A DNA stretch of 64,000 nucleotides, from positions 111,953 to 175,952 of IMG/VR virus record IMGVR_UViG_3300037258_000514. The stretch is one strand, 5' to 3'. Position numbers and translations under genes: made by a program. Shown here in pieces: positions 1 through 48,129 of the stretch. Source of the stretch: a virus. The notes below the pieces were generated by a model. The model was not told the origin of the DNA, made no database searches, and saw only the letters and a list, made by a program, of their open reading frames with translations. Each line of letters starts with the position of its first letter. Within the stretch, counting starts at the first letter, position 1.

Positions 1-975
1 TGCTACTTGACCGATCGTTAATCCGGCAGCTTTTCGCATAGATTCAAGCGCGCGGTTGTCTGTTACTTCAGGTCCAACACTCACAAGTTCGTAGCGTTGA
101 ACGAGAGTTTTCAAACGAGCATAAGAAGATTTGATAAGTGTTTTTGTGCTCATCTTCTTCTTACGGATATCACGCTTTACTGTCGGATGAGCAAGGAGCA
201 TCTTAATCATGTCCTTGCGATCCTTCTTAACCTCGACCACAAGTTTTTTCTCAAGTTCAGAATAACCTTCATGCTTGAAGATATGCGTGTCTTTGTCGCC
301 TAGTTCCATCAGTACTTCGTATCGAAGTACTCTAATCTTTCCTGATTGCGCTGAAAGTACATCACGCGGATTTGCTTTTACAGCCATCGTTTTCTCTCCA
401 TAAACTCCATACTGTTTTGAACAGATATGGAATCCAGAAGAGCACTGTGTATACCAATGGGGATCACCCTCTTTACGAGGCATCATGATGATCTGTCCTG
501 GGCTGTTGTCAACTGTCTGCGAATGCGTATCCATGTTGTTACGTTTTACTGACTTGTATGCAAGAAAGTGTCCATCATCTGTGATTGGTAAGTCGTTGTT
601 AACAAGCCAATCATAGAATTCTTTAATTGCATGTGGTTCAGGATTCTGATACAAGTTATTCATGAAGCGAATAAGATGACTTACGTTCTTTCGCCCCTCA
701 ATCATATCCAAAATTCGTTTACTAAGCGAATTGTGAATCTCTTTGTCTTTGTAAAAGACTGCGTCTTTCTTCACAGTCACAAGTCCATGAGATTCGACTG
801 AGATATTTTCTGCAAGCGTAACTAAGCCCGGAATTTTTTTCCATTCCTTAGCTTTGATTGCAGCTTTCATCTTCTTAAAAGTTGGATGAGACTCTTGCAA
901 TGCGAAAGGCTTACCTCCAACAATTACTTGGATAAAGTTATCTTTCAAAACAAAGGGAATAGTTTTAGTTGGCAT
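1..975 (-). CDS. rIIB-like protein, C-terminus outside the window; start of a possible XRE-type HTH at the edge
   Basis: Not in the ORF track (no stop in window). Manual translation from ATG 975: MPTKTIPF...FMNNLYQNP...LPITDDGHFLAYKSV...CSSGFHICS...VKANPRDV...GKIRVLRYEV, the rIIB motif set. Overlaps the end of rIIA. Confidence 0.8.
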   Translation of the reverse strand, partial: MPTKTIPFVLKDNFIQVIVGGKPFALQESHPTFKKMKAAIKAKEWKKIPGLVTLAENISVESHGLVTVKKDAVFYKDKEIHNSLSKRILDMIEGRKNVSHLIRFMNNLYQNPEPHAIKEFYDWLVNNDLPITDDGHFLAYKSVKRNNMDTHSQTVDNSPGQIIMMPRKEGDPHWYTQCSSGFHICSKQYGVYGEKTMAVKANPRDVLSAQSGKIRVLRYEVLMELGDKDTHIFKHEGYSELEKKLVVEVKKDRKDMIKMLLAHPTVKRDIRKKKMSTKTLIKSSYARLKTLVQRYELVSVGPEVTDNRALESMRKAAGLTIGQVA

Positions 976-3331
976 AGATATTCTTCTTCTCCTCAGGAGT
1001 TACTGTTGTTTCTTCTGCGTTGTTGTTCGCAATAGCAAAGGCTAACGTTACAATTTCTTCGTTAGCTTTGCGATCAGCATCTTCATCTTTCAGACGAATG
1101 TATTCAATTACAGGTTCTGCAGCGAAAGAGTACAAGTACGATTCCTCTATTATTTGTAGTAATGGATATTGTTTTAATATTTTCCTCCACTCCTCCTTAA
1201 AGTTAAACGCGTGTTTAATCTCAAATTTCTTTAAACGTGTTGCATTTGCGATTACGATTGCAAGCCCTTTAGGCGCTTTTCCAACTGTAATGACCAGTGA
1301 ACAAAACGCTTGCATGGGACTATCTTTTGGTAGCATTTGATTGCTGCCTATCGTTTTAAGAATTGGTAAGAGCTTAGTTTTGAATGGATAGACATCAAAA
1401 CTGAGTGATAGTTCGATCTCACGAGTGATAACAGAAGTAGTTTTGTCCAAAACCAGATTAATTACGTTAATCCAATTCGGATCTTTTACAAGTTGGCTGC
1501 TCTCATTAAAACCGTAAATCTTTGTCGTGTCATCAATCCCGAACAGTTTTGATGTCTTTGCTGCTTCGATAAACGTATTAAAATCTTCTGCGAACTCAAA
1601 ACTTCCATCACTCGGTTTTAAACTTTTTAGAGGAATGTAATAGTTCTTTCCCTCTATTGGTTTAGTAGCTATGTCGATCGGTTCCCAAGCATTTAACCAT
1701 CCTGCGCGTTCGTATCCATCGTTAAATTTCGCGATGTCATTTTGTTTGTTGAAGTATAAAATATCTCTATTTACTGTCTCGCCTTGAGGGATTACAGGAT
1801 CCATTAGCGGTTTGTATTTCGCTTTAAGCGCGCTTAGCAAAACATACGGTGGATTACCTAATCCCGCAATTATTGTTTTAGCATCTCTTAGCACGCGCTC
1901 GATAGGCACATCTTTTCGTGTACGTACGATATGATAAATAGTTTCAATTTTACCACCGTACGCAGATCTTTCGAGATATTGCGTGTTGTCCGCTGCGTTT
2001 TGAAGTAAGTAGTGTATGTAACGTTCACCGCCGCGCAACGTATCATCAATAACAAACAATACGTCGCTTCCAACTTCGATTTGTCTATCGTAATAAGTTT
2101 TCTTGCGATAGTTTAAATCTAAATCTTTCTGCGCACTAACTCTACCTTCGGATGCTAACTCAAAAACTTTTTCCTTCTTAGCATCTGATCTACTTCTACT
2201 GCTTTTTGTAAAAACATTTATTTTAACTTCGGAATAATCCAACTCATTTACTGAGACTTTTCCGTGAGTTAAAGTAAAGTTTGGATATTGACCATCGAAC
2301 ACCCCGCTGTCAATTGCACTTTCATACAATGCAGCTATATTAGGCGTATTCGTCATTGTGAATAAAAGAATCATGGCCTTCCAACTACAATCACACGCCG
2401 CAATTTGCTTCTTAGCGTTATCTATTAGCTCAGCGTTGATCTTGTCATAAGCTTTCAAGATATTTGCGATCGTTCTATCATCATTGCTTAGTGTTTCTCG
2501 CGAAGCTGCAACAGACAACTCACCAATTGGAAAGAAGATATCAATAGGCAAATTGTGAATTGTTGCTTGCATGAGAGACATTTTGCTAGAGTCAATACTT
2601 CCAACTTTGTACTTAACCATGCCTTGAATTGCACGAATACCTGTAACTCCGAGATATGAGTTACTTCTTAATCCCCAGGATTCATTTTTCTGTAAATATT
2701 CCGTTTTTTTGATATGGATCTCACGGTTAATTGTTGGAGTAGGATTAAAAAACTCTAATACACTTTCAGTGTTGTTTTGAAATTCTCTAATATCACCCTG
2801 CTTAACAGGAAATGAAACCTCCAGTCCGTTTTGTGCATCAGGAGTATCTTCTTCAGTTTGAAGAAGTATTTCAGGCGTACCCTGCGATCCTAAGAATGCA
2901 GAGTAAACGCGAGTCTTCCCCTCAAAGCGACTAATAACTGTAAACCCTTCTGTGTAGCAGAAAGGACTCTTACTACCTAATCCTAGTGCTCCAACAAAAG
3001 CGTTTGAATTAGATTTGTTAGTTCCGAAGTAAGTTGTATATAGATCAAGAATGTCTTGATGCGATAAACCTACTCCGAAATCCTTTACTGAGAAGAAAGG
3101 TTCAAACGTTGTGGGTAAGTGCAGTTCAAAAGGAACTTCCTTCCTTTCTGCTGCAACATGGGCGTCGTAAGCATTACAACTCAGCTCACGAATAATTGCT
3201 TGAATCTTGTTGTTATATAGTCCTGATGAAAGAATCGAGAACGCTTCTTTCGAAGCGGCGATTTGAAATGCTTTCGGTTGTTCGATTGCATCTCCAAGTT
3301 CAACAGAACTACTTGTTGTTTGCATTTTCAT
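965..3331 (-). CDS. rIIA-like protein with N-terminal GHKL/HATPase domain
   Basis: LYNNKIQAIIRELSCNAYDAH, VKDFGVGL, YFGTNK, GALGLGSKSPFCY motifs; adjacent to rIIB-like gene. Confidence 0.85.
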   Translation of the reverse strand: MKMQTTSSSVELGDAIEQPKAFQIAASKEAFSILSSGLYNNKIQAIIRELSCNAYDAHVAAERKEVPFELHLPTTFEPFFSVKDFGVGLSHQDILDLYTTYFGTNKSNSNAFVGALGLGSKSPFCYTEGFTVISRFEGKTRVYSAFLGSQGTPEILLQTEEDTPDAQNGLEVSFPVKQGDIREFQNNTESVLEFFNPTPTINREIHIKKTEYLQKNESWGLRSNSYLGVTGIRAIQGMVKYKVGSIDSSKMSLMQATIHNLPIDIFFPIGELSVAASRETLSNDDRTIANILKAYDKINAELIDNAKKQIAACDCSWKAMILLFTMTNTPNIAALYESAIDSGVFDGQYPNFTLTHGKVSVNELDYSEVKINVFTKSSRSRSDAKKEKVFELASEGRVSAQKDLDLNYRKKTYYDRQIEVGSDVLFVIDDTLRGGERYIHYLLQNAADNTQYLERSAYGGKIETIYHIVRTRKDVPIERVLRDAKTIIAGLGNPPYVLLSALKAKYKPLMDPVIPQGETVNRDILYFNKQNDIAKFNDGYERAGWLNAWEPIDIATKPIEGKNYYIPLKSLKPSDGSFEFAEDFNTFIEAAKTSKLFGIDDTTKIYGFNESSQLVKDPNWINVINLVLDKTTSVITREIELSLSFDVYPFKTKLLPILKTIGSNQMLPKDSPMQAFCSLVITVGKAPKGLAIVIANATRLKKFEIKHAFNFKEEWRKILKQYPLLQIIEESYLYSFAAEPVIEYIRLKDEDADRKANEEIVTLAFAIANNNAEETTVTPEEKKNIYAN

Positions 3332-4459: not shown

Positions 4460-5302
4460 CTAAAGCTTGATTCCTTCTAACATTGAAAGTTCTTTTTCTG
4501 TTACTACTACAAAAGTAGAGTTGTTTTCCTCCGCCCATTTTATAGCAGCGGCAAACTTCGCAACATTTTCTGTTGTTTCTAAAAGATTAAAAGGTTTAAT
4601 CTCAACTAGTTTCCTATCTCCGTTAGTGTAAGTAACTAAGAAATCTACAATGTAAATTCTAACTTCATTGTTAAGTATGTATTGAAGTCGAATTTTATCC
4701 TTTTCAAATAAAAGAACGTCTTTTCTTTTATCTAAAAATCTTGTAAACGTTCTTTCCCAATTACTCTGACAGAAAATATTACCGCCTTTTACTGTTATTT
4801 CTACTGATGATTTTGCTTTGAAACGATGTTTTTGCGGGTTTGTTTTTCCTTGACTTATGTTTTCAAGACAAGAATTACTAAGCTGCTTCCTTAAACTCTC
4901 AGGCCATGGATGCATAATCTTTCCCGGTTTTTTGGCTATAGCAGCCCTTATGCTAGCCGAAAGAAGATTTTTTATTGCAGAAGCTTTTTCTTTACCATAT
5001 TGTTCCTCAAAACTTCTGCCTTTCTTGTTATTTGGAGGATGCCATGCTCCAGAAGCAATTAAATTCTTCTTTGATTTACTCATATTCTTCTTATTTTCTT
5101 CTGTTGGCTTCCAACCTTTGTTTCCATGTCCTCCTCTATTTTTATCGCCAATTTTAATTCTAGCTTCGATAGAGACTTTATGGCCAAGAAGTCCTTCGCT
5201 TATATGAGTACGATGAGCTTCAGAACACTTCTTTCCTTTTCGAGAAAGGCTCATTCTCTCTTTCCAAAGAGCGTAAGCTTCGGGATTTTTCGGGGCAGGC
5301 AT
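4460..5302 (-). CDS. free-standing homing endonuclease: NUMOD3-like repeats plus TnsA-N-like PD-(D/E)XK domain
   Basis: KGKKCSEAHRTHISE repeats; SNWERTF...YIVDFLV...LVEIKP...KFAAA...FVVVTEKEL. Confidence 0.8.
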   Translation of the reverse strand: MPAPKNPEAYALWKERMSLSRKGKKCSEAHRTHISEGLLGHKVSIEARIKIGDKNRGGHGNKGWKPTEENKKNMSKSKKNLIASGAWHPPNNKKGRSFEEQYGKEKASAIKNLLSASIRAAIAKKPGKIMHPWPESLRKQLSNSCLENISQGKTNPQKHRFKAKSSVEITVKGGNIFCQSNWERTFTRFLDKRKDVLLFEKDKIRLQYILNNEVRIYIVDFLVTYTNGDRKLVEIKPFNLLETTENVAKFAAAIKWAEENNSTFVVVTEKELSMLEGIKL

Positions 5303-5306
5303 TTTT

Positions 5307-6950
5307 CTAACCTAAAGCCTGATCTATCATATCTTGCTTTTCGATGATTCGTTTCGCCATGTTCGCGTCTAAACTTTGATCGAACACAATATGAAGAACG
5401 TTAACAACGTCCTTCTGTCCAATTCTGTGTAATCTATCCTCAGCTTGTGTAACCATTGCAGGTCTCCAGTCAAGTTCACAAAGAATAACGTGACTTGCAG
5501 CAGTTAACGTCCAACCAACACCCATTGTACCAATGGAACCAATAATCATTTTACACTTAGGATCTTTCTGAAAGCGATCTACAGCCTGTTGTCTTTGTTG
5601 AATGCTATATCCTTGGTGCATAACGCTGGCAACGTTTTGAAAGTGTTGATAAATTCCGTTAACAACGTCTCCATGATGGGCAAACACAACAATCTTGTCA
5701 ACTTGTTCAAGTGTGTTGGTTAAGTAATCAACGATAAAAGGAATTTTTGCTACAGCAGTATCATGTCTGAGTTTACTAATCTCCTCAAACATTATCTGAT
5801 GAAGTCCTTTTAAATCTTTCGCTGCTTCATCGTAACTTTCTTTATCACCTTCTGATTGAGCAATCTCAGCTTTCGCGATTGCTTCAAGCACTGCCGATTC
5901 GTTATTGGCGTAAAAATTTATTTCCTTCTGAACTTTACCTCTTACTTCAGGAGGAGCGGGAATGGCGATGATCTGTCTACGCTTTGGAGGAAGTTCTGTT
6001 AAAACGTCTTTCTTTAAGCGGCGAATCATTATACTAGCACGAAGGCGTTCTTGAAGAACGTCTAAGTTAGTGGCACCATCAAACGTTCTATAACCACTAT
6101 CTCCATCCGCTCCACAGAATTTTTTCGCATACAACCAAAAATTTCTTCCAAGTCCCTCAGCATCTGCAACGCGGAGCATAGGCCATAGTTCAACAGGGCG
6201 ATTTAGAATCGGCGTACCTGTTAACCAGAGTTTCTTTTTAGCCTCAAGTACACGACAGTTTTTAATATCACGTGTGTCTTCATGACCAAGAACCGCCATT
6301 GTTCGTTTAGCATCGGGATTCTTCATTAAGTGCGACTCATCGTATATGTGTAAGTCCCATTCTCTATCGAGAATTTTCGATTTTAACTTCGAGATGATTT
6401 CATAATTCGCTAACACGATATTCGAGTTAGGTAAGATCGTAGATGAAGCAAAGTCGCCTGATAAATTTCTTGTCATCCACTTCATGAATTCTCTGCCCCA
6501 GTTAAGCAACAGACTTGCAGGGCATACAAGTAGGATGTTTTTAATTTGAGGTAAAGCATTACATACACCAATCGCCTGAATTGTTTTTCCTAAGCCCATT
6601 TCATCAGCGATTAATGTATTTATTCTTGGTAGTGCATATTCGATTCCTGCTTTTTGGAAAGGAAGATAAGCAAAAGGTTTTCCAGTATCAGGATCAATTC
6701 CGTCAGGTACAGGAATTGTTAAATCTGAAGATAGTGCTTTTGATAAAGCTATCTGCTGATCGTGAAAATTTAATTGAGCTTTTGCCGATGTATCTGCAAT
6801 ATCTTCAAAGAGTTTTGCTACATGGGTCATGCCCGTCCACCAGACCTTACTTCTAAAGTCAAAGTGAAAGCCTACATCTTTAAACTGACCCTTAAATGCA
6901 GGATAACCAGTTATTTCATACCTAGCGCCCGTCCATGTAAGTTTAGGCAT
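5307..6950 (-). CDS. SNF2-family (SMARCAL1/HARP-like) helicase
   Basis: LIADEMGLGKT, DESH, LTGTP, QAEDRLHRIGQ. Confidence 0.92.
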   Translation of the reverse strand: MPKLTWTGARYEITGYPAFKGQFKDVGFHFDFRSKVWWTGMTHVAKLFEDIADTSAKAQLNFHDQQIALSKALSSDLTIPVPDGIDPDTGKPFAYLPFQKAGIEYALPRINTLIADEMGLGKTIQAIGVCNALPQIKNILLVCPASLLLNWGREFMKWMTRNLSGDFASSTILPNSNIVLANYEIISKLKSKILDREWDLHIYDESHLMKNPDAKRTMAVLGHEDTRDIKNCRVLEAKKKLWLTGTPILNRPVELWPMLRVADAEGLGRNFWLYAKKFCGADGDSGYRTFDGATNLDVLQERLRASIMIRRLKKDVLTELPPKRRQIIAIPAPPEVRGKVQKEINFYANNESAVLEAIAKAEIAQSEGDKESYDEAAKDLKGLHQIMFEEISKLRHDTAVAKIPFIVDYLTNTLEQVDKIVVFAHHGDVVNGIYQHFQNVASVMHQGYSIQQRQQAVDRFQKDPKCKMIIGSIGTMGVGWTLTAASHVILCELDWRPAMVTQAEDRLHRIGQKDVVNVLHIVFDQSLDANMAKRIIEKQDMIDQALG

Positions 6951-8051: not shown

Positions 8052-8402
8052 TTACCTTTCTTGAAGTTTTATGTCGTCAGGGATAAACCCTTCTCTCAAC
8101 CACTGATCGACGATAATGCTTCCCTTTTTGTTGTCTTTTGTTACTATACGAAAGCTTTTGTTTACAGCTTTTAACTGCTCTGCTAAAGACTTTGCCATTG
8201 CTGGAGTGCAAGGGGCACTGTAAAGAATGAATCCACATTTACAAGCTAGCCCGGTATCTTTATCTATCTGATAATTTTCACATAAAACTGTATGAAGATC
8301 AGATCGTTTTTTGATTACTTCGCTCACGATGTTTACACAACAGTTACACTTTCGGCAATGAATTCCTTTGCAACAAGAAGCGCACTCCCAATCACTAGTC
8401 AT
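8052..8402 (-). CDS. Cys-rich hypothetical protein
   Basis: N-terminal CASCCKGIHCRKCNCC. Confidence 0.6.
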   Translation of the reverse strand: MTSDWECASCCKGIHCRKCNCCVNIVSEVIKKRSDLHTVLCENYQIDKDTGLACKCGFILYSAPCTPAMAKSLAEQLKAVNKSFRIVTKDNKKGSIIVDQWLREGFIPDDIKLQER

Positions 8403-8673
8403 CTAACCTTATTTCACGCTCTTCGTTAACGTTTAGTTTTGGTCTAAGTTTTGCTTGGTGCACTCTCTCTTCTACTTCTGCGCGTTCTTTAGCAAGTTGC
8501 GCTTTAACCTGCTTCTCAATTTTTTCTTTCTTTTGTTTTTCTAATCGTAGATTACTTTCTCGCGCCCAGCGCGCCGTCGCTGTTCTACAATCTGAGCAGT
8601 AGCCCTCTTTGGATAGAAAGACAAGTGATTTAACTGTCTTCGCGCAAGAACCGCATCTAAGTGCTACTTTCAC
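8395..8673 (-). CDS. Zn-ribbon/coiled-coil protein ending REIRLDD
   Basis: CGSC...CSDC; GGAGG SD; shared C-terminal tag. Confidence 0.7.
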   Translation of the reverse strand: MKVALRCGSCAKTVKSLVFLSKEGYCSDCRTATARWARESNLRLEKQKKEKIEKQVKAQLAKERAEVEERVHQAKLRPKLNVNEEREIRLDD

Positions 8674-8765
8674 TAGTCCTCCAATCTGACTTCGCGTACG
8701 TCTAATATTTCTTTCTTCTTCTTTGGTTTTTCGTTCAGAAATTCTTTTCCTGTAAGCTTAGTCAT
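8673..8765 (-). CDS. 30-aa microprotein ending REVRLED (not in ORF track)
   Basis: MTKLTGKEFLNEKPKKKKEILDVREVRLED; fills the gap exactly, overlaps both neighbours, GAGGTG SD. Confidence 0.7.
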   Translation of the reverse strand: MTKLTGKEFLNEKPKKKKEILDVREVRLED

Positions 8766-9039
8766 CAAAACGCACCTCACGCTCTGGTTTCTGCTCTTTC
8801 GAAACGTTTAGTTGCTCAAGTGTGCGGACTCTTGCCCTTAATCGTTCAATATCTTTTTCTGTCTTTTTTACTTGCCATTGGGCTGTATCAAGTGCTCGTG
8901 CTAGTTTAACTACATTTGCTAGCAGGTTGTCATATTTTGATTTTACATTCCTGTGTACTTTGTTATTACTATACGCCTGCAAGATTATTATTACTGTTAA
9001 TCCCGCTAGCCAACCTCCGTAAGCAATATTGAAAGTCAT
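8758..9039 (-). CDS. membrane-anchored coiled-coil protein ending REVRFDD
   Basis: N-terminal hydrophobic helix, heptad region, shared tag. Confidence 0.7.
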   Translation of the reverse strand: MTFNIAYGGWLAGLTVIIILQAYSNNKVHRNVKSKYDNLLANVVKLARALDTAQWQVKKTEKDIERLRARVRTLEQLNVSKEQKPEREVRFDD

Positions 9040-9320
9040 TAATCTTCCAATCTTACAACACGCATTTCCTCGTCGGCAAGTTGCTTCTCATGCTTATCAA
9101 CAGCGAACGAATATCCTTGTCCTGTTAATTGCAGTTGTTTTTGCAAGATATGCTGACAGGCTTTCCTCTTTTCAAATTCTAACTTTTGGAATTTCCATGC
9201 AGGGCAAGTGCATCCAAACACTCCATCTTCGCGTTGACTTACTTTATATTTCTTCCCTGAAGTACCAATTACATCCCAGTGTTTTACCCAACCATTCGTG
9301 TCTTGAGTCTTATTTTTCAA
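9039..9320 (-). CDS. SWIM zinc-finger protein ending RVVRLED
   Basis: GTSGKKYKV...CTCPAW...CQH. Confidence 0.8.
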   Translation of the reverse strand: MKNKTQDTNGWVKHWDVIGTSGKKYKVSQREDGVFGCTCPAWKFQKLEFEKRKACQHILQKQLQLTGQGYSFAVDKHEKQLADEEMRVVRLED

Positions 9321-9543
9321 TTCATCACCTTGAAGAACAAATCCTGCATTAAGACAGCGTTTTTTCGTACCGAGCGAGTTAAAGTGCGCGCTCCCTCTAT
9401 ATATCTGTAGATGTTATAGTCTTGAAACCCTTTTTCCTGGCATCTTCGCTTGCTTCTTCAGAAGGACGCGTTGCTTGGTAAGGCGCATCTGATTGCTTAG
9501 TAAGCATCATAATTTGATTAGAAGTAGACAATTTAAGTCTTCT

Positions 9544-9569
9544 GTTCCGCTCACTTCGGTGAACGGAAC
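9544..9569. promoter_or_regulatory. stable hairpin (terminator or processing element) downstream of the DUF3150-like gene
   Basis: GTTCCGCTCAC-TTCG-GTGAACGGAAC. Confidence 0.45.
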
Positions 9570-9592
9570 GCAGGACTTAACCTGCGTTTACC

Positions 9593-10540
9593 TTAGTCTT
9601 CGAATCTTACAGCGCGCATCGGAGCGTCAACCAAAGCCTTGTCCAATTCAGCTTTGATTTGTTCAAAGCCTGCTTGTACGCCTGCTCTCATTGACTCGTT
9701 AGTCCTTAACATATCAGGAGTAACGTCGTTGATAAGAGCCTTTGCTTGATCAGCAAGTTTGTCTAAGTTCTCATTGCCTGTTAGATTTCTAACTTTGAGA
9801 ACTTTCAGGAAGTCAGTCAGATTATCGAGCATCGAATCTCTGAAAACTTTCTTCTTTCCTTCTTCTGCTGGAGACAACCTTTCAACAAGATGTCCAACAA
9901 GTTCGTTCATTCCCGAGTAGAGGACTTGCTCTGCTACGTTACCCGCCTCTACCCATTTCTGAACCATCTTGTCAGCTTCTCTTGCAGCTACTTCTGCGCT
10001 GATCTCTTTTAGTTTCGCATCAACTGAGAACTGAACATATTGCCAACTAAAGTAAAAGCTAGCTCTATATGCTTCCTTTGTAAGGTAGTCATTGGGATCA
10101 AAAAGATCGCCTAGGGAGGCTTTTGCTTCTTCAAGATCGTGTTCGTAAGCATTAAAACAATTCTCAATCAATGGTAAACGTCCGGCTTGGTGTTGTGTAA
10201 GTTCGTTTTCTGTTTCGTTAAACAGGTCGATGGGCAACATATACATCGCTCTCTTTAACGGGAAGGGAATACAACGTCGAGAAAGGAACTCATCAATCTT
10301 AGCATCAAAGTTAAACAACTTCTTCAGTGCTTGTGAATTGAAGAGATCCTTTGAAACGTGAATGCGTTTCTTGTTCGCGTTCACTTGTATCTCAGAAGAG
10401 CTAACTGTCTTCGATAGGCTAGGCCACCTACGGCTAACCGTAAGGATAACAGCTGAATCCATAATGTTGTTCTTGGGCTTAACTGTTGGGTTAACTTCGT
10501 TGTGTTGCGTTGAGGGCATTTCAATTACTTCTGCTGTCAT
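9593..10540 (-). CDS. DUF3150-like protein ending RAVRFED
   Basis: SKDLF...LGDLFDPNDY...LVGHLVERLSP..EGKKKVFRDS..NL...LRTNESMR pattern; near DUF1257/DUF2997/AAA genes. Confidence 0.7.
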   Translation of the reverse strand: MTAEVIEMPSTQHNEVNPTVKPKNNIMDSAVILTVSRRWPSLSKTVSSSEIQVNANKKRIHVSKDLFNSQALKKLFNFDAKIDEFLSRRCIPFPLKRAMYMLPIDLFNETENELTQHQAGRLPLIENCFNAYEHDLEEAKASLGDLFDPNDYLTKEAYRASFYFSWQYVQFSVDAKLKEISAEVAAREADKMVQKWVEAGNVAEQVLYSGMNELVGHLVERLSPAEEGKKKVFRDSMLDNLTDFLKVLKVRNLTGNENLDKLADQAKALINDVTPDMLRTNESMRAGVQAGFEQIKAELDKALVDAPMRAVRFED

Positions 10541-11462: not shown

Positions 11463-12149
11463 TTATCCCTCTACGGTAATCAAGCGTTCAGGATTAAAAT
11501 CTACAGCACGCATTTCAGCATGTTGCTGAAGTTTGTTCCTTTCTTCAGCAAGTTGTTGTTTAGCCTCGGCAAGATGTTTTTCTTTCTCTGCCTTTAAACG
11601 GTCCTCGTTTTGCTTCTCGTAAATAGCCTTATTTGCTGCGTATTCGGCTTCCCACTCCGCAGATTGTTTCGCTCGTTTATCCGCCTTTCTTTGTAGACGC
11701 GCAGCAGTTAATACTTCCTGATGAGCCTGCCTTTGCTTCCAAACTTCAGGGTCGTCTGAAGTTGTAAACGCTGTGTAATACGAATCAAAAGGAATGTGTA
11801 TATGAAACCACTTTCCATCGGATGTTATTTTATAATCTCCCTGATTAAATCCGGCAGTTTTTAGTGTTGTAATTGCAGTTGCAGCACGTTGAATATTAAT
11901 ATTCACGCCACCTGATTCGTAATTCATCAGCCAGATTACGTCTCTGTATTGATATTTATGTCCACTCATGTCTGCATTGGCATTGCCGAACGGTTTGCCG
12001 ATTGCTTCAAGCAGGATTCTTATTGCTTTTCCTGCTTCATCGAACGTTAATGTTCGGCAGCTCCCAGAGCGCAATGCTTCTTCCCACGACCTAATTTCTA
12101 GTTCAGGATCAAGCTCTTGCAGTTGTGTTATGTAATCTTTTACTTTCAT
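11463..12149 (-). CDS. hypothetical protein with C-terminal coiled coil
   Basis: 228 aa; ends MRAVDFNPERLITVEG (tag-like). Confidence 0.7.
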   Translation of the reverse strand: MKVKDYITQLQELDPELEIRSWEEALRSGSCRTLTFDEAGKAIRILLEAIGKPFGNANADMSGHKYQYRDVIWLMNYESGGVNINIQRAATAITTLKTAGFNQGDYKITSDGKWFHIHIPFDSYYTAFTTSDDPEVWKQRQAHQEVLTAARLQRKADKRAKQSAEWEAEYAANKAIYEKQNEDRLKAEKEKHLAEAKQQLAEERNKLQQHAEMRAVDFNPERLITVEG

Positions 12150-12204: not shown

Positions 12205-12450
12205 TTACTTCCTCTCTCCTAACAGGTCTTGAACTTTGTCACACGGAACTGTTGCTATACTCGTTACATACGACCATCCGTAAGTATAGGAGTTAATAGC
12301 GGCAAAACAAATACCAGTTCTTTGATCTTTGAAGTAGCTAATCGTTTGGCTTGGTTCTATCTTGTCAGGTTTATCGTTGGATTGACACGAAGTTAGAAAT
12401 AGTGCAGCAGTAAGAACCAGTGTTTTAAGCAGGCGACTCTGTGTTTTCAT
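12205..12450 (-). CDS. small lipoprotein
   Basis: MKTQSRLLKTLVLTAALFLTS-C lipobox; YFKDQRTGICFA; AGGAG SD before ATG 12450. Confidence 0.75.
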   Translation of the reverse strand: MKTQSRLLKTLVLTAALFLTSCQSNDKPDKIEPSQTISYFKDQRTGICFAAINSYTYGWSYVTSIATVPCDKVQDLLGERK

Positions 12451-12706
12451 ACTCTCCTTTAGAGAAAAGAACCCTCTCAATATATGAAACCTCTTCAGCT
12501 AAAGCATCAGCACGAAGCTTATGCTTTCCTAGCTTCGTACCATCTATCATTGTTGCTTGCCACATGCCGTCTTCTGTTGGTTCGACATTACTAACACGAC
12601 AAACGCTGGCTTGCCCCTCACGGAGCAAGTCAGCTAATCTGTCGTCGTATATGAAGGCTATACGGCCTTCTTTACTGATTGAGAGTTTGAGTTTCTGGTC
12701 TGGCAT
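12425..12706 (-). CDS. conserved protein of the DUF1257/DUF2997/AAA cluster
   Basis: FIYDD...RVSNVEPTEDGMW...RADALAEEV; ATG 12706 with GGAG SD. Confidence 0.65.
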   Translation of the reverse strand: MPDQKLKLSISKEGRIAFIYDDRLADLLREGQASVCRVSNVEPTEDGMWQATMIDGTKLGKHKLRADALAEEVSYIERVLFSKGEYENTESPA

Positions 12707-12854
12707 ACATCTCCATTGTTGGTTCGTCGCTTGATACTTTGCCGAGTGCTTCTTCAAGATTGCGCGTTAACTCTTTGCAACTACTTCCTGAAACACCATT
12801 AACAAAGATGGAAACTTTACCATCTTTTGGAATTAACACTTTGATTGTTTGCAT
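12672..12854 (-). CDS. DUF2997-family protein
   Basis: IPKDGKVSIFVNGVSGSSCKELTRNLEEALG...PTMEMY. Confidence 0.85.
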   Translation of the reverse strand: MQTIKVLIPKDGKVSIFVNGVSGSSCKELTRNLEEALGKVSSDEPTMEMYARPETQTLNQ

Positions 12855-12856
12855 AG

Positions 12857-13297
12857 TTAGTTCTTTACCGCCTCAAGCTCAATCGTTCCATCCTTGAGCG
12901 TAGTTGTTCGGATTTCGAATCCAAACGGAATGTTCTTCTTCGCAACTTCCAACTGATAGTTTTGGATCAGGTTAGAAGCATTGGAACCTACCTTTGCTTC
13001 CAAACCATATCCTCCACCGAAGAAGTCGTAAAGTAGAGTGTAGCCAGACTTTGCAGTGCGGCTCTTTACAACACCAACTTCGTAAGCGTTTTTGTTTCCA
13101 GGCACACGAAGAGCATGATCACACTTACCAAGATCCTTCTCGCTAAAGCCGGCAGGGACCGGATAATCTCCTACGCTATGTCCCCACCACTTATATGAAT
13201 GTTGATCACGAACAAATTCTAATCCAATATTCTTAGCTGCTTTTTCAAGACAACCTAAATCCTTAATTTCACAATCTATCGTTACAACGTGTGACAT
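12857..13297 (-). CDS. DUF1257 (Ycf35-like) protein
   Basis: MSHVVTIDCEIKDL..LEKA...YEVGV...YTLLYDF...LIQNY...DGTIEL. Confidence 0.85.
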   Translation of the reverse strand: MSHVVTIDCEIKDLGCLEKAAKNIGLEFVRDQHSYKWWGHSVGDYPVPAGFSEKDLGKCDHALRVPGNKNAYEVGVVKSRTAKSGYTLLYDFFGGGYGLEAKVGSNASNLIQNYQLEVAKKNIPFGFEIRTTTLKDGTIELEAVKN

Positions 13298-13937
13298 TTG
13301 TTATATCCTCCATTAGTTTATTTATACCGTTGTTCTTGAACTTACCTGTTAAATCTGTGACTATAATAAATTCGGCGTTATTTTCTGCGCACCATCCCTC
13401 TGCTGCCGCAAATTTTCTTGGATTATCATAACAATCCAAGAAACACTTTGGTTTTACCTCAACAAGAAATTTCTTTGTCCTTATGCTGTAAAGCATAAAA
13501 TCAGGTACGTATTTCTTCTTGTATCCTGATTCAGATATGTAGGCTATTCTAATTGGTTCATATTCAAATCTTTCTACAAAAGGATTTTCTTCCAAGAATC
13601 TAATGTAGTAACGCTCAAAGCTGCTTCTACAATAGAAATTTCCTCCTTTTTCAGTTTGAATATAGCCTCCACAAAACTTACCGCGCTTTGATATAAGATT
13701 CTCTTTTCCTATAGATCTAAGAATCTTCTTTACGGAATGTAAATTAATTCCTGATATACTCCGTAGTTCAGAAGCGTTAAGTAATGAATGCTGTTCGAGT
13801 AATGATACAACTACTCGACGCTTTCCCGCAAAATCCAGTTGTTCTTTGTGCTTCACGTATTTTTGTATTTGCTCATCTGGCGAAGTGCGCCATCGAATTT
13901 TCATTTCTTCCTGACGATCTTTTAAAGATTGAATCAT
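13269..13937 (-). CDS. homing endonuclease-like, TnsA-N PD-(D/E)XK domain
   Basis: RSSFER...YEPIRIAY...YVPDF...LVEVKP...KFAAA. Confidence 0.8.
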   Translation of the reverse strand: MIQSLKDRQEEMKIRWRTSPDEQIQKYVKHKEQLDFAGKRRVVVSLLEQHSLLNASELRSISGINLHSVKKILRSIGKENLISKRGKFCGGYIQTEKGGNFYCRSSFERYYIRFLEENPFVERFEYEPIRIAYISESGYKKKYVPDFMLYSIRTKKFLVEVKPKCFLDCYDNPRKFAAAEGWCAENNAEFIIVTDLTGKFKNNGINKLMEDITNVTRCNDRL

Positions 13938-15489: not shown

Positions 15490-17049
15490 TCATGCTTCAC
15501 CTACTTTCGTATCAAGATTTACAATTCGTCCTTGATCAGAATCTTGCGTTTGTTTTACGTTACTGAATGTGTAAACACCGCTCTTGCTAGCGGATAGATA
15601 CTTTCGATCTGCCATTCTGCGCAGTTCTTCAATCCTCTTTGGATCAGCCCTTATGACTGGAACGATGTAACATGCTGCTTCCTCAAGCGTAATGCGTAAT
15701 TGCCATGCCAACATGCAGCAATCGTGGATATTTCTTGGGGTCCATCCATCCTCGTTAGACGGTAGTGGGTGGTCCAACTTATATTTAGTTTTCCATACGT
15801 CCCACACTGCCATTCTTTCTTCCCTTGTCGGCAAATCAAAGAAGAACGTTCCGAGATTAAATCTGTCCTTTAATTCTGACGACAAGGCACTCTCATCATT
15901 GCAAGTAGCAATCACAAGTGGCTTGCCTGACGCAACAATTGCAGCAAGAGCGTTCTTCAACTGCTGAGTTGACTGTCCAACAAACTGTCCCTTCAACTCA
16001 GAAATGTTATTGATAATAAGTGGAATCTTATACTCTCCAGCCAGCGCCTTCGAGATATAAGATTTGCTGCATCCCTGAATGCCTGCAAACCTAATCGCAA
16101 GCACTTCATTATCAGCCATCCAAGAAAGAATCTGTCCGTGCATTTCCTGCGATACTCCACTGCTATCACCTTTTGATCCTGCAAAGGCTTTCTCAAGTTC
16201 ATCCCAGAATACAAGAACAGTTGGCGGATCTTGGCCGTTCATTACTTTTGTAAGATATTCCTTAATTACAGGAACACCTCTTACATCGTTGAATGATTCT
16301 TTCCCGCCCCAGATTCTCATTCCAGGGTTTTGTTCAATAGCCGCTTTCTTTCTATCCCATAACCGCTTTGAATCTATGCCTTCTTTGGTAAGTGACATAG
16401 CAACAACTTGTTCCGCCGAGAATGCTGCTAACCCTTTGATTGATCTAACAGCACGCTTAATGTCGTCCTCTTCAGGCTTAACTTTCGCTTCTTTGTAAGT
16501 TGACTTACAAAGCTTCTCAACAATTACTTTTAAATCTTCTTCTGTTGGAAGAGGATCTTCAAGTACAAGCATATCCTGCTTTAGTTCAGCGGGCAGTTGA
16601 ATGCCTGGTGTTAGGATAACCAACGTCTTGCGCGAAGATTTGAACTGATCACGCAAATTCCAAATCGCTTGCCCAACGATCGCCTCTGCAAGATCGTGAC
16701 TACCAATAAATCTGTGACCATTGTGGATGAAGATGATTGTCTTTCGATCCACATGTGCAAACAATTTCATTGCGGCGGCAGGATCAGTAATCTGACTTGG
16801 GAGAATGTTCTCCCTCTGTGTTGCAACGCACAGTTGCTGAACCTGATCTTCGCCAGCTTTATTGACAGCTTTTAATCCCGATGAAATATCAAAGCTGATA
16901 AGTGGGGCACCCTCGTTGGCGGTGCCTTTTTCTTCTGTAATTGCGTTAATTTGCTTAATTACGGAAGCAGGGTCAGGTGTTTGGATACACAGCAGAGGTA
17001 CACCAGCGCGTAAAGCAGCTTTAAAGTCTTGTATCAACTTTGTTTCCAT
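15490..17049 (-). CDS. Ycf46-like AAA+ ATPase with rearranged core
   Basis: Inactive N-terminal AAA-like domain; VLVFWDELEK; GIQGCSKS; VIATCN; RFNLGTFFFDLP. Confidence 0.85.
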   Translation of the reverse strand: METKLIQDFKAALRAGVPLLCIQTPDPASVIKQINAITEEKGTANEGAPLISFDISSGLKAVNKAGEDQVQQLCVATQRENILPSQITDPAAAMKLFAHVDRKTIIFIHNGHRFIGSHDLAEAIVGQAIWNLRDQFKSSRKTLVILTPGIQLPAELKQDMLVLEDPLPTEEDLKVIVEKLCKSTYKEAKVKPEEDDIKRAVRSIKGLAAFSAEQVVAMSLTKEGIDSKRLWDRKKAAIEQNPGMRIWGGKESFNDVRGVPVIKEYLTKVMNGQDPPTVLVFWDELEKAFAGSKGDSSGVSQEMHGQILSWMADNEVLAIRFAGIQGCSKSYISKALAGEYKIPLIINNISELKGQFVGQSTQQLKNALAAIVASGKPLVIATCNDESALSSELKDRFNLGTFFFDLPTREERMAVWDVWKTKYKLDHPLPSNEDGWTPRNIHDCCMLAWQLRITLEEAACYIVPVIRADPKRIEELRRMADRKYLSASKSGVYTFSNVKQTQDSDQGRIVNLDTKVGEA

Positions 17050-17054
17050 TAAAT

Positions 17055-17867
17055 CTATTTCCTTCCTCTCATCGATTTTATTAGTTCATCAACTGTTGTT
17101 ATCTTGCTCTCAAAATCTAAGAAGATTCTTTCAATATCTTTCGTTAAATCTTCTTTTGTTTTTTCCCTGCGCATTTGAAGCGCTTGTTTAAATCCAATTC
17201 GAAATCCTACGAGTAAAAATCCTTTTCGTTGCGATTCTGGTTCAAGAATTTTATGGCAAGCTGTACAGACCGTTATACCATTCATTAAATCATATTGAAG
17301 TTCGGGAAATGCTCGTCGTGGTTTAAGATGATGAGCGTGGCGATCTTTTCCTTTTACTATTTTTTCGCAAATTCTACAAGTATCCTTATCTCTTTTGTAA
17401 ACCGCTTGTCGCCATTCATAATATTGAATGCCTCCTTGCGTATCGAGAGTAGCGCGTGCTCGTTGACTTTTAATTCTTCGTGCAAGAATTTCTTTTGCTT
17501 TTTCTTCTCCGTGAATTTCCTGGAGAGTTTTACCACGAAGTTTATCGCCTAGAATATTACCAGCTTTTACTATGTTCATAAGCATCTCATTTGCGCGTTC
17601 ACCATAAGTCTCAGTTAAAGACTCTCCTTTATTATGCGGCTGCCGTGCTCTTGCTTTTTTGATTAGTTCGGCTGCCCTTTCCTCTCCGTACAGTTCAACA
17701 TACGATTTGCCTACTGTGCGACCTTTTCTCCCTTTTAAAGCCTTTGAAATTTTCTCAGCTATACACAGTTTTTCTGCTTGAGATCGCGTAGATGCTTGGG
17801 CAATTGCAAACAAACGCCTCTCCTCGATCCATATTTTATAGCGCTCTGGATTCAGAGGAGCAGGCAT
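17055..17867 (-). CDS. HNH homing endonuclease with N-terminal DNA-binding repeats
   Basis: WRQAVYKRDKDTCRIC...HAHHLKP...NGITVCTACH. Confidence 0.85.
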   Translation of the reverse strand: MPAPLNPERYKIWIEERRLFAIAQASTRSQAEKLCIAEKISKALKGRKGRTVGKSYVELYGEERAAELIKKARARQPHNKGESLTETYGERANEMLMNIVKAGNILGDKLRGKTLQEIHGEEKAKEILARRIKSQRARATLDTQGGIQYYEWRQAVYKRDKDTCRICEKIVKGKDRHAHHLKPRRAFPELQYDLMNGITVCTACHKILEPESQRKGFLLVGFRIGFKQALQMRREKTKEDLTKDIERIFLDFESKITTVDELIKSMRGRK

Positions 17868-46513: not shown

Positions 46514-48129
46514 GCAATAGACCTGTCACTATTGTTGCGTTAACGAAGTACGCAGAAGTATTAAAAGGGTTTGTAGAATCAGTAGAAAAATTCTGTCCCG
46601 GTATTCCAAGAATATTAGTAACAGACGGACTTCACTATGAAAAAGCATTTAATATTAATGCTTCTCAAGTTACAGGCGTTTGGAATTTTATCCCCGGACC
46701 AGAGAAGTTCTCGATGGCCGGGAACGGAAACCTAGGCTTAAAAGCCGTTCCTAACGATCATGATATTCTATATTGTGGTGATGATATAAGATTCTTGGAA
46801 GAGAATACAATAGAACGGCTGCAAGAAATTGCTTATAAAGACGAGACTGTTGGTCTTCTATCGCCTAGACTTATGGGACGAGCAAGTCCAACACTTGCAA
46901 ATCCGAAATTTGAAATTACATTTGTTAGACCGCTTGAGATGTGGTTCCCTTGTATTTATATCAAGCGTGAAGTTTTAAATAAAGTTGGTTATTTAGATGA
47001 ACGGTTTTCGGATTTTGGTTCAGATGATTTAGACTATTGTATTCGCACGCTACTTGCAGGATATTCGCTAGCAGCGACGCCTCGTGTTGTTGTTCAACAT
47101 GACGCAAGTCCTGAGGGCGGCCCCACAACATTTGTTAAGAACATTGGGATGGATAAGTGGGTTGCGCAAGAAAAAGAATCCTATGCGAAAATTAAAAACA
47201 AGTATGGTGTAGATACAAAAACATTTAATGAATTTCTTTCGACGGGTAATCTAGAACTTCTAAAGACAAATGCTGTTGCTCAGATGCAAATTCCTGATGC
47301 TGTCAAGGAAAAGGCACGTGAAAATATAAAAGGACGTAGTTTGTACATAGCCACCCCTGCTTATGGTGGTATTATGACTACAAACTATGTGGAGTCTTTA
47401 TTAGGACTTCTTAACCTTTGTACTAACATGGGTATTTTTTACGAACTTGGGTTTGTTCGCAATGAGAGTCTTATTACGCGCGCACGTAATAAGATGGTAG
47501 ATGGTTTCATGCGCAAGAGTAAATGCACTGATTTTGTGTTTATCGATGCTGATATAGGTTTTGATCCGCGCGGTGTTCTTTCACTTCTTCTTTATAATGA
47601 GGGTGTGATTGGAGCGCCCTGCGTTAGAAAGAATTTGCGTCTAGATAGAGTCGTAAGAGCTGCACGAAGCAATCCTGATAAGAACTATACGCAGGATGAA
47701 CTTGAATTACTATGCGGTGAATTTGTACTTAACTTTCATCCTGATAACACGCCTTCTTCAATTCAACTCGGGTGTTTACTTGAAGTGAAAGATAGTGGCA
47801 CAGGAATTATGCGGATTAGGCGCGAAGTGTTTGAAAAATTTAGAGAACATTACCCTGAGAAAATGTATGAACCCGCTCATGGTGAAGATGGCGATCCAAT
47901 CTCGCCTATGTGCATGTATTTCCAAGCTGACCTTGATCCGGATAGTGCTAAATACACTACCAGTGGTCTACCTATTTATATTAGTGAGGATTATGGTTTC
48001 TGTCGCGATTGTCGTAATATGGGAACTAAAATTTACATCGCGCCTTGGATAAATACAACGCACATGGGTAGTTATTTGTTTAGAGGTAATATGTCAAGTG
48101 TAAGTGCTGCTAAAGGTACAATAAGATAA
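46510..48129 (+). CDS. two-domain glycosyltransferase
   Basis: GT2 domain (GDD, LDERF..FGSDDLD) plus second GT-A domain (IATPAY, ESLITRARN, FIDAD, SEDYGFC). Confidence 0.85.
   Translation: MSNRPVTIVALTKYAEVLKGFVESVEKFCPGIPRILVTDGLHYEKAFNINASQVTGVWNFIPGPEKFSMAGNGNLGLKAVPNDHDILYCGDDIRFLEENTIERLQEIAYKDETVGLLSPRLMGRASPTLANPKFEITFVRPLEMWFPCIYIKREVLNKVGYLDERFSDFGSDDLDYCIRTLLAGYSLAATPRVVVQHDASPEGGPTTFVKNIGMDKWVAQEKESYAKIKNKYGVDTKTFNEFLSTGNLELLKTNAVAQMQIPDAVKEKARENIKGRSLYIATPAYGGIMTTNYVESLLGLLNLCTNMGIFYELGFVRNESLITRARNKMVDGFMRKSKCTDFVFIDADIGFDPRGVLSLLLYNEGVIGAPCVRKNLRLDRVVRAARSNPDKNYTQDELELLCGEFVLNFHPDNTPSSIQLGCLLEVKDSGTGIMRIRREVFEKFREHYPEKMYEPAHGEDGDPISPMCMYFQADLDPDSAKYTTSGLPIYISEDYGFCRDCRNMGTKIYIAPWINTTHMGSYLFRGNMSSVSAAKGTIR

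Follow-up and report, generated by a model that had tools for sequence, protein, structure and literature searches.

Proteasome activators, ClpX adaptors, sliding clamps and other hub machines choose their partners through common docking peptides. The XB tail of SspB (..R-P-A-L-R-V-V-K) and the C-terminus of MuA are read by the N-domain of ClpX, and the PP1-docking RVxF motif, [RK]-x(0,1)-[VI]-x-[FW], binds as an added beta-strand. In the HbYX system (PAN, Rpt, Cdc48, Blm10) and the GQYL system (mycobacterial Mpa and Bpa) a C-terminal peptide is common to an AAA+ ATPase and unrelated proteins, with one docking site. Many unrelated phage DNA-metabolism proteins likewise bind one hub by one C-terminal peptide in the case of the clamp motifs of T4 gp43, gp33, gp55 and RNase H and the bacterial QL[SD]LF motif. 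A further group is the trio of Ycf46 (AAA), Ycf35 (DUF1257) and DUF2997 of cyanobacteria and plastids; no functional study was found in the literature searched on DUF1257, DUF2997, DUF3150 or ycf46/ycf35. The subject of this analysis is a C-terminal tail shared by proteins of a soil phage. The window, i.e. the whole stretch of DNA that was analysed, is the last 64 kb (64,000 nt, positions 111,953 to 175,952) of the 175,952-bp IMG/VR virus record IMGVR_UViG_3300037258_000514, which is estimated to be 86% complete. The tail is conserved in two protein families, linked to a gene module with an AAA+ ATPase, selected as a peptide and spelled differently in each lineage, and most likely addresses eight otherwise unrelated proteins to one putative partner. 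A literature search found no publication on this shared-tail phenomenon.

The tail reads R-x-[VI]-R-[LF]-[ED]-D and closes five co-directional minus-strand genes at 8395-10540, with the five termini that a first-pass annotation of the window had reported. That annotation had tied the tail to this cluster; all five proteins do carry it, but it is not special to them, being the older tail of the core module with eight carriers in the genome, five inside the window and three outside. The window contains five matches to the degenerate DNA pattern of tail plus stop codon, whereas 100 dinucleotide shuffles contain none. Six-frame translation of the whole genome yields the peptide pattern eight times, all on the minus strand and all eight immediately before a stop codon, with no occurrence across 20 Markov-2 shuffles. 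The carriers, together with one uncertain member, are as follows.

8395..8673, minus strand: 92-aa protein with a CxxC..CxxC zinc ribbon, a Lys/Glu-rich helix and the tail ..EEREIRLDD (sequence reading)
8673..8765, minus strand: putative 30-aa peptide made up largely of a Lys-rich linker and the tail ..DVREVRLED (open reading frame)
8758..9039, minus strand: 93-aa protein with an N-terminal membrane helix, a coiled coil and the tail ..PEREVRFDD (sequence reading)
9039..9320, minus strand: SWIM zinc-finger protein, 93 aa, with the tail ..EEMRVVRLED (CxC..CxH signature; Pfam SWIM, E 0.027)
9593..10540, minus strand: DUF3150-like protein of the module core (315 aa), on which the tail is ancestral, ending ..APMRAVRFED
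11463..12149, minus strand: protein of 228 aa with a tail-like ..MRAVDFN located 10 residues from the C-terminus; membership uncertain (sequence reading)
Genome position 46925 (L001 6926-7216), minus strand, outside the window: extra carrier of 96 aa with the strict tail
Genome position 47217 (L001 7218-7811), minus strand, outside the window: extra carrier of 197 aa with the strict tail
Genome position 47810 (L001 7811-8035), minus strand, outside the window: extra carrier of ~74 aa with the strict tail

The three carriers outside the window are flanked by a Mre11/SbcD-like gene (Metallophos) and a Rad50/SbcC-like gene (SMC_N). The SWIM label is carried by the CxC...CxH signature and by tailed homologues, the Pfam match itself being sub-threshold. 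The ATG of the putative 30-aa peptide lies within the GATGAC of the upstream gene's tail, with GAGGTG 7 nt upstream. No homologues were seen for this peptide and none were found for the 228-aa protein; the coiled-coil protein at 8758..9039 has none in related loci and gave weak coiled-coil-type matches only in Pfam and PHROGs. The zinc-ribbon carrier has 0 homologues among 1.8 billion representative proteins, and the other homologue-less carriers yielded nothing from Pfam, PHROGs (bar weak coiled-coil-type matches) or related loci. No close relatives of the phage were found by DNA search against cultured phages, and scans of IMG/VR gave 0 matches for the exact dialect E-R-E-[VI]-R-x-E-D-stop and 0 confirmed matches with the DUF3150-like protein alone. 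The DUF3150-like gene is followed by a gap of 272 nt (window 9321-9592), which begins with an 8-bp hairpin (AACGCAGG..CCTGCGTT) lacking a U-tract; its sole open reading frame encodes 44 aa without the tail, and Rfam, promoter and terminator scans of it gave nothing significant.

Conservation of the tail in homologues, on which the first-pass proposal depended, was observed in both the DUF3150-like and the SWIM families. The DUF3150-like protein has 36 homologues; aligning 29 of these shows R309, the tail's first Arg, to be invariant and P307 nearly so. Close relatives end in R-x-[IV]-R-[FL]-x-D, distant bacterial ones in R-P-R-R-x-I-L-R followed by a few residues, and the C-terminus of the window protein carries P-x-R-x-[IVF]. 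The hidden Markov model (HMM) of the family matches 15/17 phage and bacterial loci and 66/80 acidobacterial loci. The window protein itself has no match to Pfam DUF3150 (PF11348), the gathering threshold not being reached, but PF11348 is matched by 2/29 of its homologues (E 4e-5) and is present in 18% of the members of its ESM Atlas cluster; by these profile matches the family is distantly related to Pfam DUF3150 and best named 'DUF3150-like'. In the 80 acidobacterial loci fetched, the strict motif, scored within 8 residues of the C-terminus, was found 51 times against ~5 expected, with R-K-F-R-F-D-E-E as the commonest spelling. Homologues of the SWIM protein occur in L002, L005, L007, L010, L011, L012, L014 and P0038, and every one is tailed in the spelling of its own phage (P-I-R-Q-I-Y-L-E-D, L-R-V-I-T-L-D, V-R-R-I-T-F-D-E-D, I-R-M-F-T-F-D, G-R-A-I-R-I-K-K-K.., T-R-I-I-T-F-D-D-V). 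Most ATPases of the module end in G-R-x-[IVL]-x-hydrophobic; the family consensus ..GRxIxxx backs the loose tail (GRIVNLD) first noted on the ATPase of this phage, which ends ..GRIVNLDTKVGEA. Of the core proteins, the DUF3150-like and SWIM proteins and usually, in a looser form, also the ATPase have it as their ancestral tail. Five more proteins, without detected homologue, bear the strict tail copied onto them in this phage. The added carriers have a common build, in which a small N-terminal domain or membrane helix is followed by a spacer (Lys/Glu-rich helix, coiled coil, poly-Pro run or low-complexity stretch) and then by the tail, an arrangement typical of tethered short linear motifs.

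The next start codon overlaps or abuts the tail in several of the eight carriers (ATG in GATGAC twice; TAATG- and TAGTG-type overlaps). This would suit a nucleic-acid signal, in which the 3' ends are conserved for translational coupling (Shine-Dalgarno/start overlap) or as recombination boundaries of gene cassettes. However, the carriers at 9593 and at genome position 46925 have no nearby downstream start, and Shine-Dalgarno-like purine runs vary in position within the motif, so that the overlap constraint, which the first-pass annotation had itself named as an explanation that would overturn its own, does not account for the tail. Among the carriers the first Arg of the tail is encoded by CGT, CGC or AGA, the second by AGA, AGG, CGT or CGC, and Leu/Phe by TTA, TTG, CTC (Leu), TTT or TTC. 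Switches between CGN and AGR at both Arg positions and between TTR and CTC at Leu are thus present, some codon pairs differ by 2-3 bases, and the GC-rich acidobacterial homologues retain the tail peptide using unrelated codons. Selection therefore acts on the peptide, as had been proposed from the synonymous differences, and the nucleic-acid reading of the tail, now largely refuted, is extremely improbable.

The gene module of mobile elements to which the tail is linked is conserved and comprises an AAA+ ATPase of ~500 aa, a DUF1257-type protein, DUF2997, a conserved protein of ~85 aa and the DUF3150-like protein. Besides the last of these, the window carries the following members and a recurring neighbour.

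15490..17049, minus strand: tandem (D1-D2) AAA+ ATPase with the tail ..QGRIVNLDTKVGEA (loose motif), candidate reader or co-client (PF00004)
12857..13297, minus strand: DUF1257 (Ycf35-type) module protein, distant, candidate reader (profile comparison)
12672..12854, minus strand: DUF2997 module protein, 60 aa, candidate reader (PF11211, E 1e-16)
12425..12706, minus strand: conserved ~85-aa module protein, candidate reader (family alignment, HMM)
5307..6950, minus strand: SNF2-family helicase recurring beside the module (PF00176 and PF00271)

Contigs of phages and of bacteria and the cultured Tunturiibacter phage Tunturi_3 all show synteny of the module. The co-occurrence of tail and AAA/DUF1257/DUF2997 genes, put forward earlier as a test, held in the phage contigs, the one cultured phage and bacterial islands. 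When prokaryotic species were scanned at one genome each, 478 relatives of the ATPase came up, most of them in metagenome-assembled genomes (MAGs) of Acidobacteriota, with multiple copies in several genomes; the tail system therefore belongs to a widespread module, present also in soil phages, for which no published function was found. The families of the cyanobacterial and plastid trio are together here (PF11211 directly, PF06868 by profile comparison, and PF00004), with the DUF2997 and DUF1257 genes adjoining each other, the latter recognized via profile comparison. Both DUFs were present in the control genome of Synechococcus elongatus. The ATPase gave no NCBIfam match when Ycf46 orthology was looked at. 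The DUF1257-type window protein has no PF06868 match at E 0.1; comparison by hhalign with a PF06868-positive family gave 74% probability (E 2.7e-5). In its family alignment an N-terminal Met-Ser-His, Asp91 and Tyr114 are all invariant, which suggests that the N-terminus itself may be functional. Its model has a predicted local distance difference test (pLDDT) score of 87; Foldseek returned nothing at E <= 0.001, and the best VIA-align score (Z 4.9, to adaptin appendage, KA1 and ZipA-type platforms) is within noise. The ~85-aa protein shows the motifs R-V-S-H-V-E-P .. W-x-A-D .. A-L-A-A-E, and its HMM matches 10/17 related loci. SNF2 homologues adjoin the module in L002, L007 and L015, and 34 acidobacterial loci have an SNF2-like gene upstream of the ATPase; in L002, the closest long relative, the SNF2 helicase gene contains an intein and a ThiF (E1-like) gene lies ~4 kb downstream (L002 13029-15974 and 19648-20364). 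PADLOC assigned no defence system to the module proteins, the matches being a marginal one of the ATPase P-loop to IetA (E 3e-4) and generic SNF2 ones. The ATPase, DUF1257 and DUF3150-like proteins have no sequence relatives in the PDB.

Spelling of the tail is specific to the lineage. The C-termini of a locus match the tail of its own DUF3150-like protein better than those of other loci (permutation p = 3e-4), and the tails of the ATPase and the DUF3150-like protein covary weakly (p = 0.025), relatedness among loci being ignored in both tests. Three proteins of L005 end in R-x-I-R-[VIL] and then Lys/Arg; in L006 the tails end immediately after the second hydrophobic residue; position 3 is Phe in two proteins of L007 and Leu in L009; and in G004 five or more tails follow R-R-I-x-[FL]-x-[DE]. 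On the AAA tree, tail position 5 has switched between F and L some 6-7 times independently. A charge-swap scan of the ATPase for the basic-tail lineage returned four columns only, resembling an intra-helix salt-bridge swap. The pattern of spelling fits a single co-evolving putative reader encoded by each element. It also bears on mimicry of a host factor, in which the tail would bind a host hub, e.g. a ClpX-type N-domain that reads SspB-like R-V-V-K tails, and not a module protein. No module reader has been found so far and the tail is like known basic-hydrophobic adaptor tails, which would agree with a host target. However, the spelling varies strongly between related elements and covaries within an element, a better fit to an element-encoded partner, and in hosts of different phyla the tail goes with one and the same gene module; host mimicry is accordingly improbable.

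The ATPase shares 33-44% identity with those of 13 phage loci. Its first AAA domain is degenerate and the second active, with PF00004 matched at residues 321-379. The AlphaFold2 model of the monomer (pLDDT 86) shows a pair of alpha/beta domains and, at residues 499-519, a disordered tail (pLDDT <50), and the best Foldseek matches are the tandem AAA proteins Rix7, NVL and Cdc48/p97 (E ~1e-13, TM 0.45). A pore-loop-like K-G-Q-F-V-G can be read in the second domain, where a Walker-B-like strand, V-L-V-F-W-D-E-L-E-K (model strand 278-282), precedes the P-loop. The P-loop is non-canonical here (G-I-Q-G-C-S-K-S); the family consensus, G-P-P-G-x-G-K-S, has the same order of elements, and the second domain may therefore be a permuted AAA core. 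As with HbYX and GQYL, a short C-terminal peptide is common here to an AAA+ ATPase and unrelated proteins, and the ATPase of this phage has a Cdc48/Rix7-like tandem fold and a disordered tail; however, the sequences are unrelated, the penultimate Tyr is missing, the tail is charged (R..R..ED) and the module has no proteasome-like receptor ring. Since all eight tails end in [LF]-[ED]-D, none has the terminal hydrophobic-Tyr-any of HbYX. The SspB and MuA tails are similar in P-x-R-x-V and in being basic-hydrophobic C-terminal peptides after a flexible spacer, which there tether an adaptor to an AAA+ machine. They differ in that a ClpX-type zinc-binding N-domain was not found on this ATPase, and in that the tail here is acidic at its end and sits on eight proteins and not on one adaptor. 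The clamp motifs resemble the tail in its distribution over unrelated proteins, but the tail is rooted in the ATPase module and not in replication genes, and its consensus matches neither the QL[SD]LF type nor the hydrophobic L-x-F type.

The main rival to docking is a degron or substrate-entry tag, in which the pore of the ATPase or an adaptor would engage the tail to unfold, extract or recycle tagged substrates, as ssrA is engaged for ClpX. The exact C-terminal position of all eight tails in this phage, the tandem Cdc48-like fold with its pore-loop-like Q-F-V-G, and the spacer-plus-tail build, which is like that of tethered degrons, speak for such a role. Nevertheless, the tail is permanent on conserved core proteins of the module and often on the ATPase itself, no peptidase is recognized in the module, and residues follow the motif in other lineages. 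A degron is therefore rather unlikely.

We lean towards the tail being a C-terminal docking motif for one putative reader tied to the ATPase module; both the docking and its target are inferred. The general form of the motif is R-x-hydrophobic-x-hydrophobic, usually followed by acidic residues, and in this phage R-x-[VI]-R-[LF]-[ED]-D-COOH. As a beta-strand it would present R, V/I, L/F and D (positions 1, 3, 5 and 7) on one face, and this strand would dock by strand addition into a single site of a reader on, or associated with, the ATPase module. In this way the tail would tie adaptors or clients to a threading ATPase of the Cdc48 type. Zinc-finger proteins encoded beside DNA-repair and helicase genes make up many of the tailed proteins. 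The Phe variants of this phage (REVRF, RAVRF) fit the RVxF pattern, which is a resemblance of pattern only, and 5/8 tails differ in having Leu at the last position of that pattern. A link to PP1 was rejected: the only two Metallophos proteins of the genome, the Mre11-like nuclease and a small phosphoesterase beside QueC, are not PPP phosphatases.

Candidate readers were also considered among the small module proteins. One complex prediction of DUF1257, DUF2997 and the ~85-aa protein with the 30-aa tailed peptide, the ATPase not being included, scored 0.01 (mark 0.32), a value that weighs neither for nor against binding. The Pfam models for DUF1257 and DUF2997 were not matched in two complete tail-bearing phage genomes. 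In one of the two, however, a profile of our own recovered DUF1257 together with the ~85-aa and DUF3150-like proteins, 20 kb away from the ATPase. The Pfam DUF1257 model is thus insensitive and misses phage copies, and ruling out DUF1257 and DUF2997 as universal readers by their absence therefore fails.

Several observations weigh against docking. Among the 80 acidobacterial loci all 51 strict motifs sit on DUF3150-like proteins, so that the recruitment of many clients is an elaboration of the phage lineage and not universal. One class of acidobacterial ATPases, ending ..PLTVMPPSRSEA, lacks the motif and the tail of the ATPase of this phage matches it only loosely, so that the ATPase tail may use a different site. 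In some lineages basic residues or up to ~12 extra residues follow the motif, and a free carboxylate directly after it is therefore not universally required.

The motif is also pseudo-symmetric (plus, x, hydrophobic, x, hydrophobic, x, minus), and the tails might pair with one another in antiparallel fashion, clustering the tagged proteins or pairing them with the ATPase tails without any reader. Every partner bears the same motif, and in the dialect of this phage R1 would oppose D7 and V3 would oppose L5 in such a pair. The tails R-A-I-R-L-R-K-K of L005, R-N-I-L-R-R-P-K of bacteria and those of L006, which end at position 5, are not self-complementary, which makes self-association very improbable. 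The strict C-terminal position seen in this phage would suit carboxylate chemistry, that is, adenylation or conjugation by an E1-like enzyme, and loading into capsids falls under the same heading. Two relatives have ThiF-like genes near the module, and a PRTRC_E gene is found in acidobacterial islands. However, ThiF was not found in this genome (86% complete), and an E1 link was rejected on this ground; the module also occurs in bacterial islands, with no capsid genes noted adjoining it there; and no carrier is among the structural genes. C-terminal chemistry or packaging is very unlikely on these grounds.

If docking is the function of the tail, the system may tentatively be pictured as a ubiquitin-independent, Cdc48-like remodelling system of phages and mobile elements, a possibility that we hold to be distinctly weaker than docking as such. 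An encoded C-terminal tail would act as the address label, co-evolving in each lineage with its reader and being copied onto new genes (here zinc-finger proteins beside Mre11/Rad50 and SNF2, and a membrane anchor), and would wire arbitrary proteins to one ATP-driven machine on DNA-bound complexes. The tail predicts membership of the system for proteins without an assigned function and serves as a bait for the reader, and the lineage-specific spellings are natural specificity swaps. The cultured phage Tunturi_3 carries both module and tails, the latter on gp103 (the ATPase), gp96 (DUF3150-like) and gp131, and the system is therefore testable at the bench. In Tunturi_3, gp96 (L018 18693-19652, PP885686), annotated as 'HNH endonuclease', matches the DUF3150-like profile at E 1e-79 and ends in ..R-K-F-H-L-E-G-E-E-F; the annotation of gp96 is probably wrong.

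Further genes were observed in and beside the module. In the acidobacterial MAG contig L036 (4114-19189) an SNF2-like helicase, a Rce1-like CAAX protease, the ATPase, DUF1257 and DUF2997 are followed by a Fer4_12/radical-SAM-like protein of 204 aa, a DUF3150-like protein and PRTRC system protein E. In the window, a TnsA-like endonuclease gene (13269-13937, minus strand) lies between the ATPase and DUF1257 genes, and a second TnsA/restriction-like gene (4460-5302) and an HNH gene (17055-17867), also on the minus strand, flank the module; these genes resemble selfish endonuclease insertions. The 788-aa protein encoded at 965-3331 (minus strand), immediately downstream of the SNF2 region, has an ATP-binding GHKL N-terminus of the HSP90/sacsin type (NCBIfam, E 2e-8).

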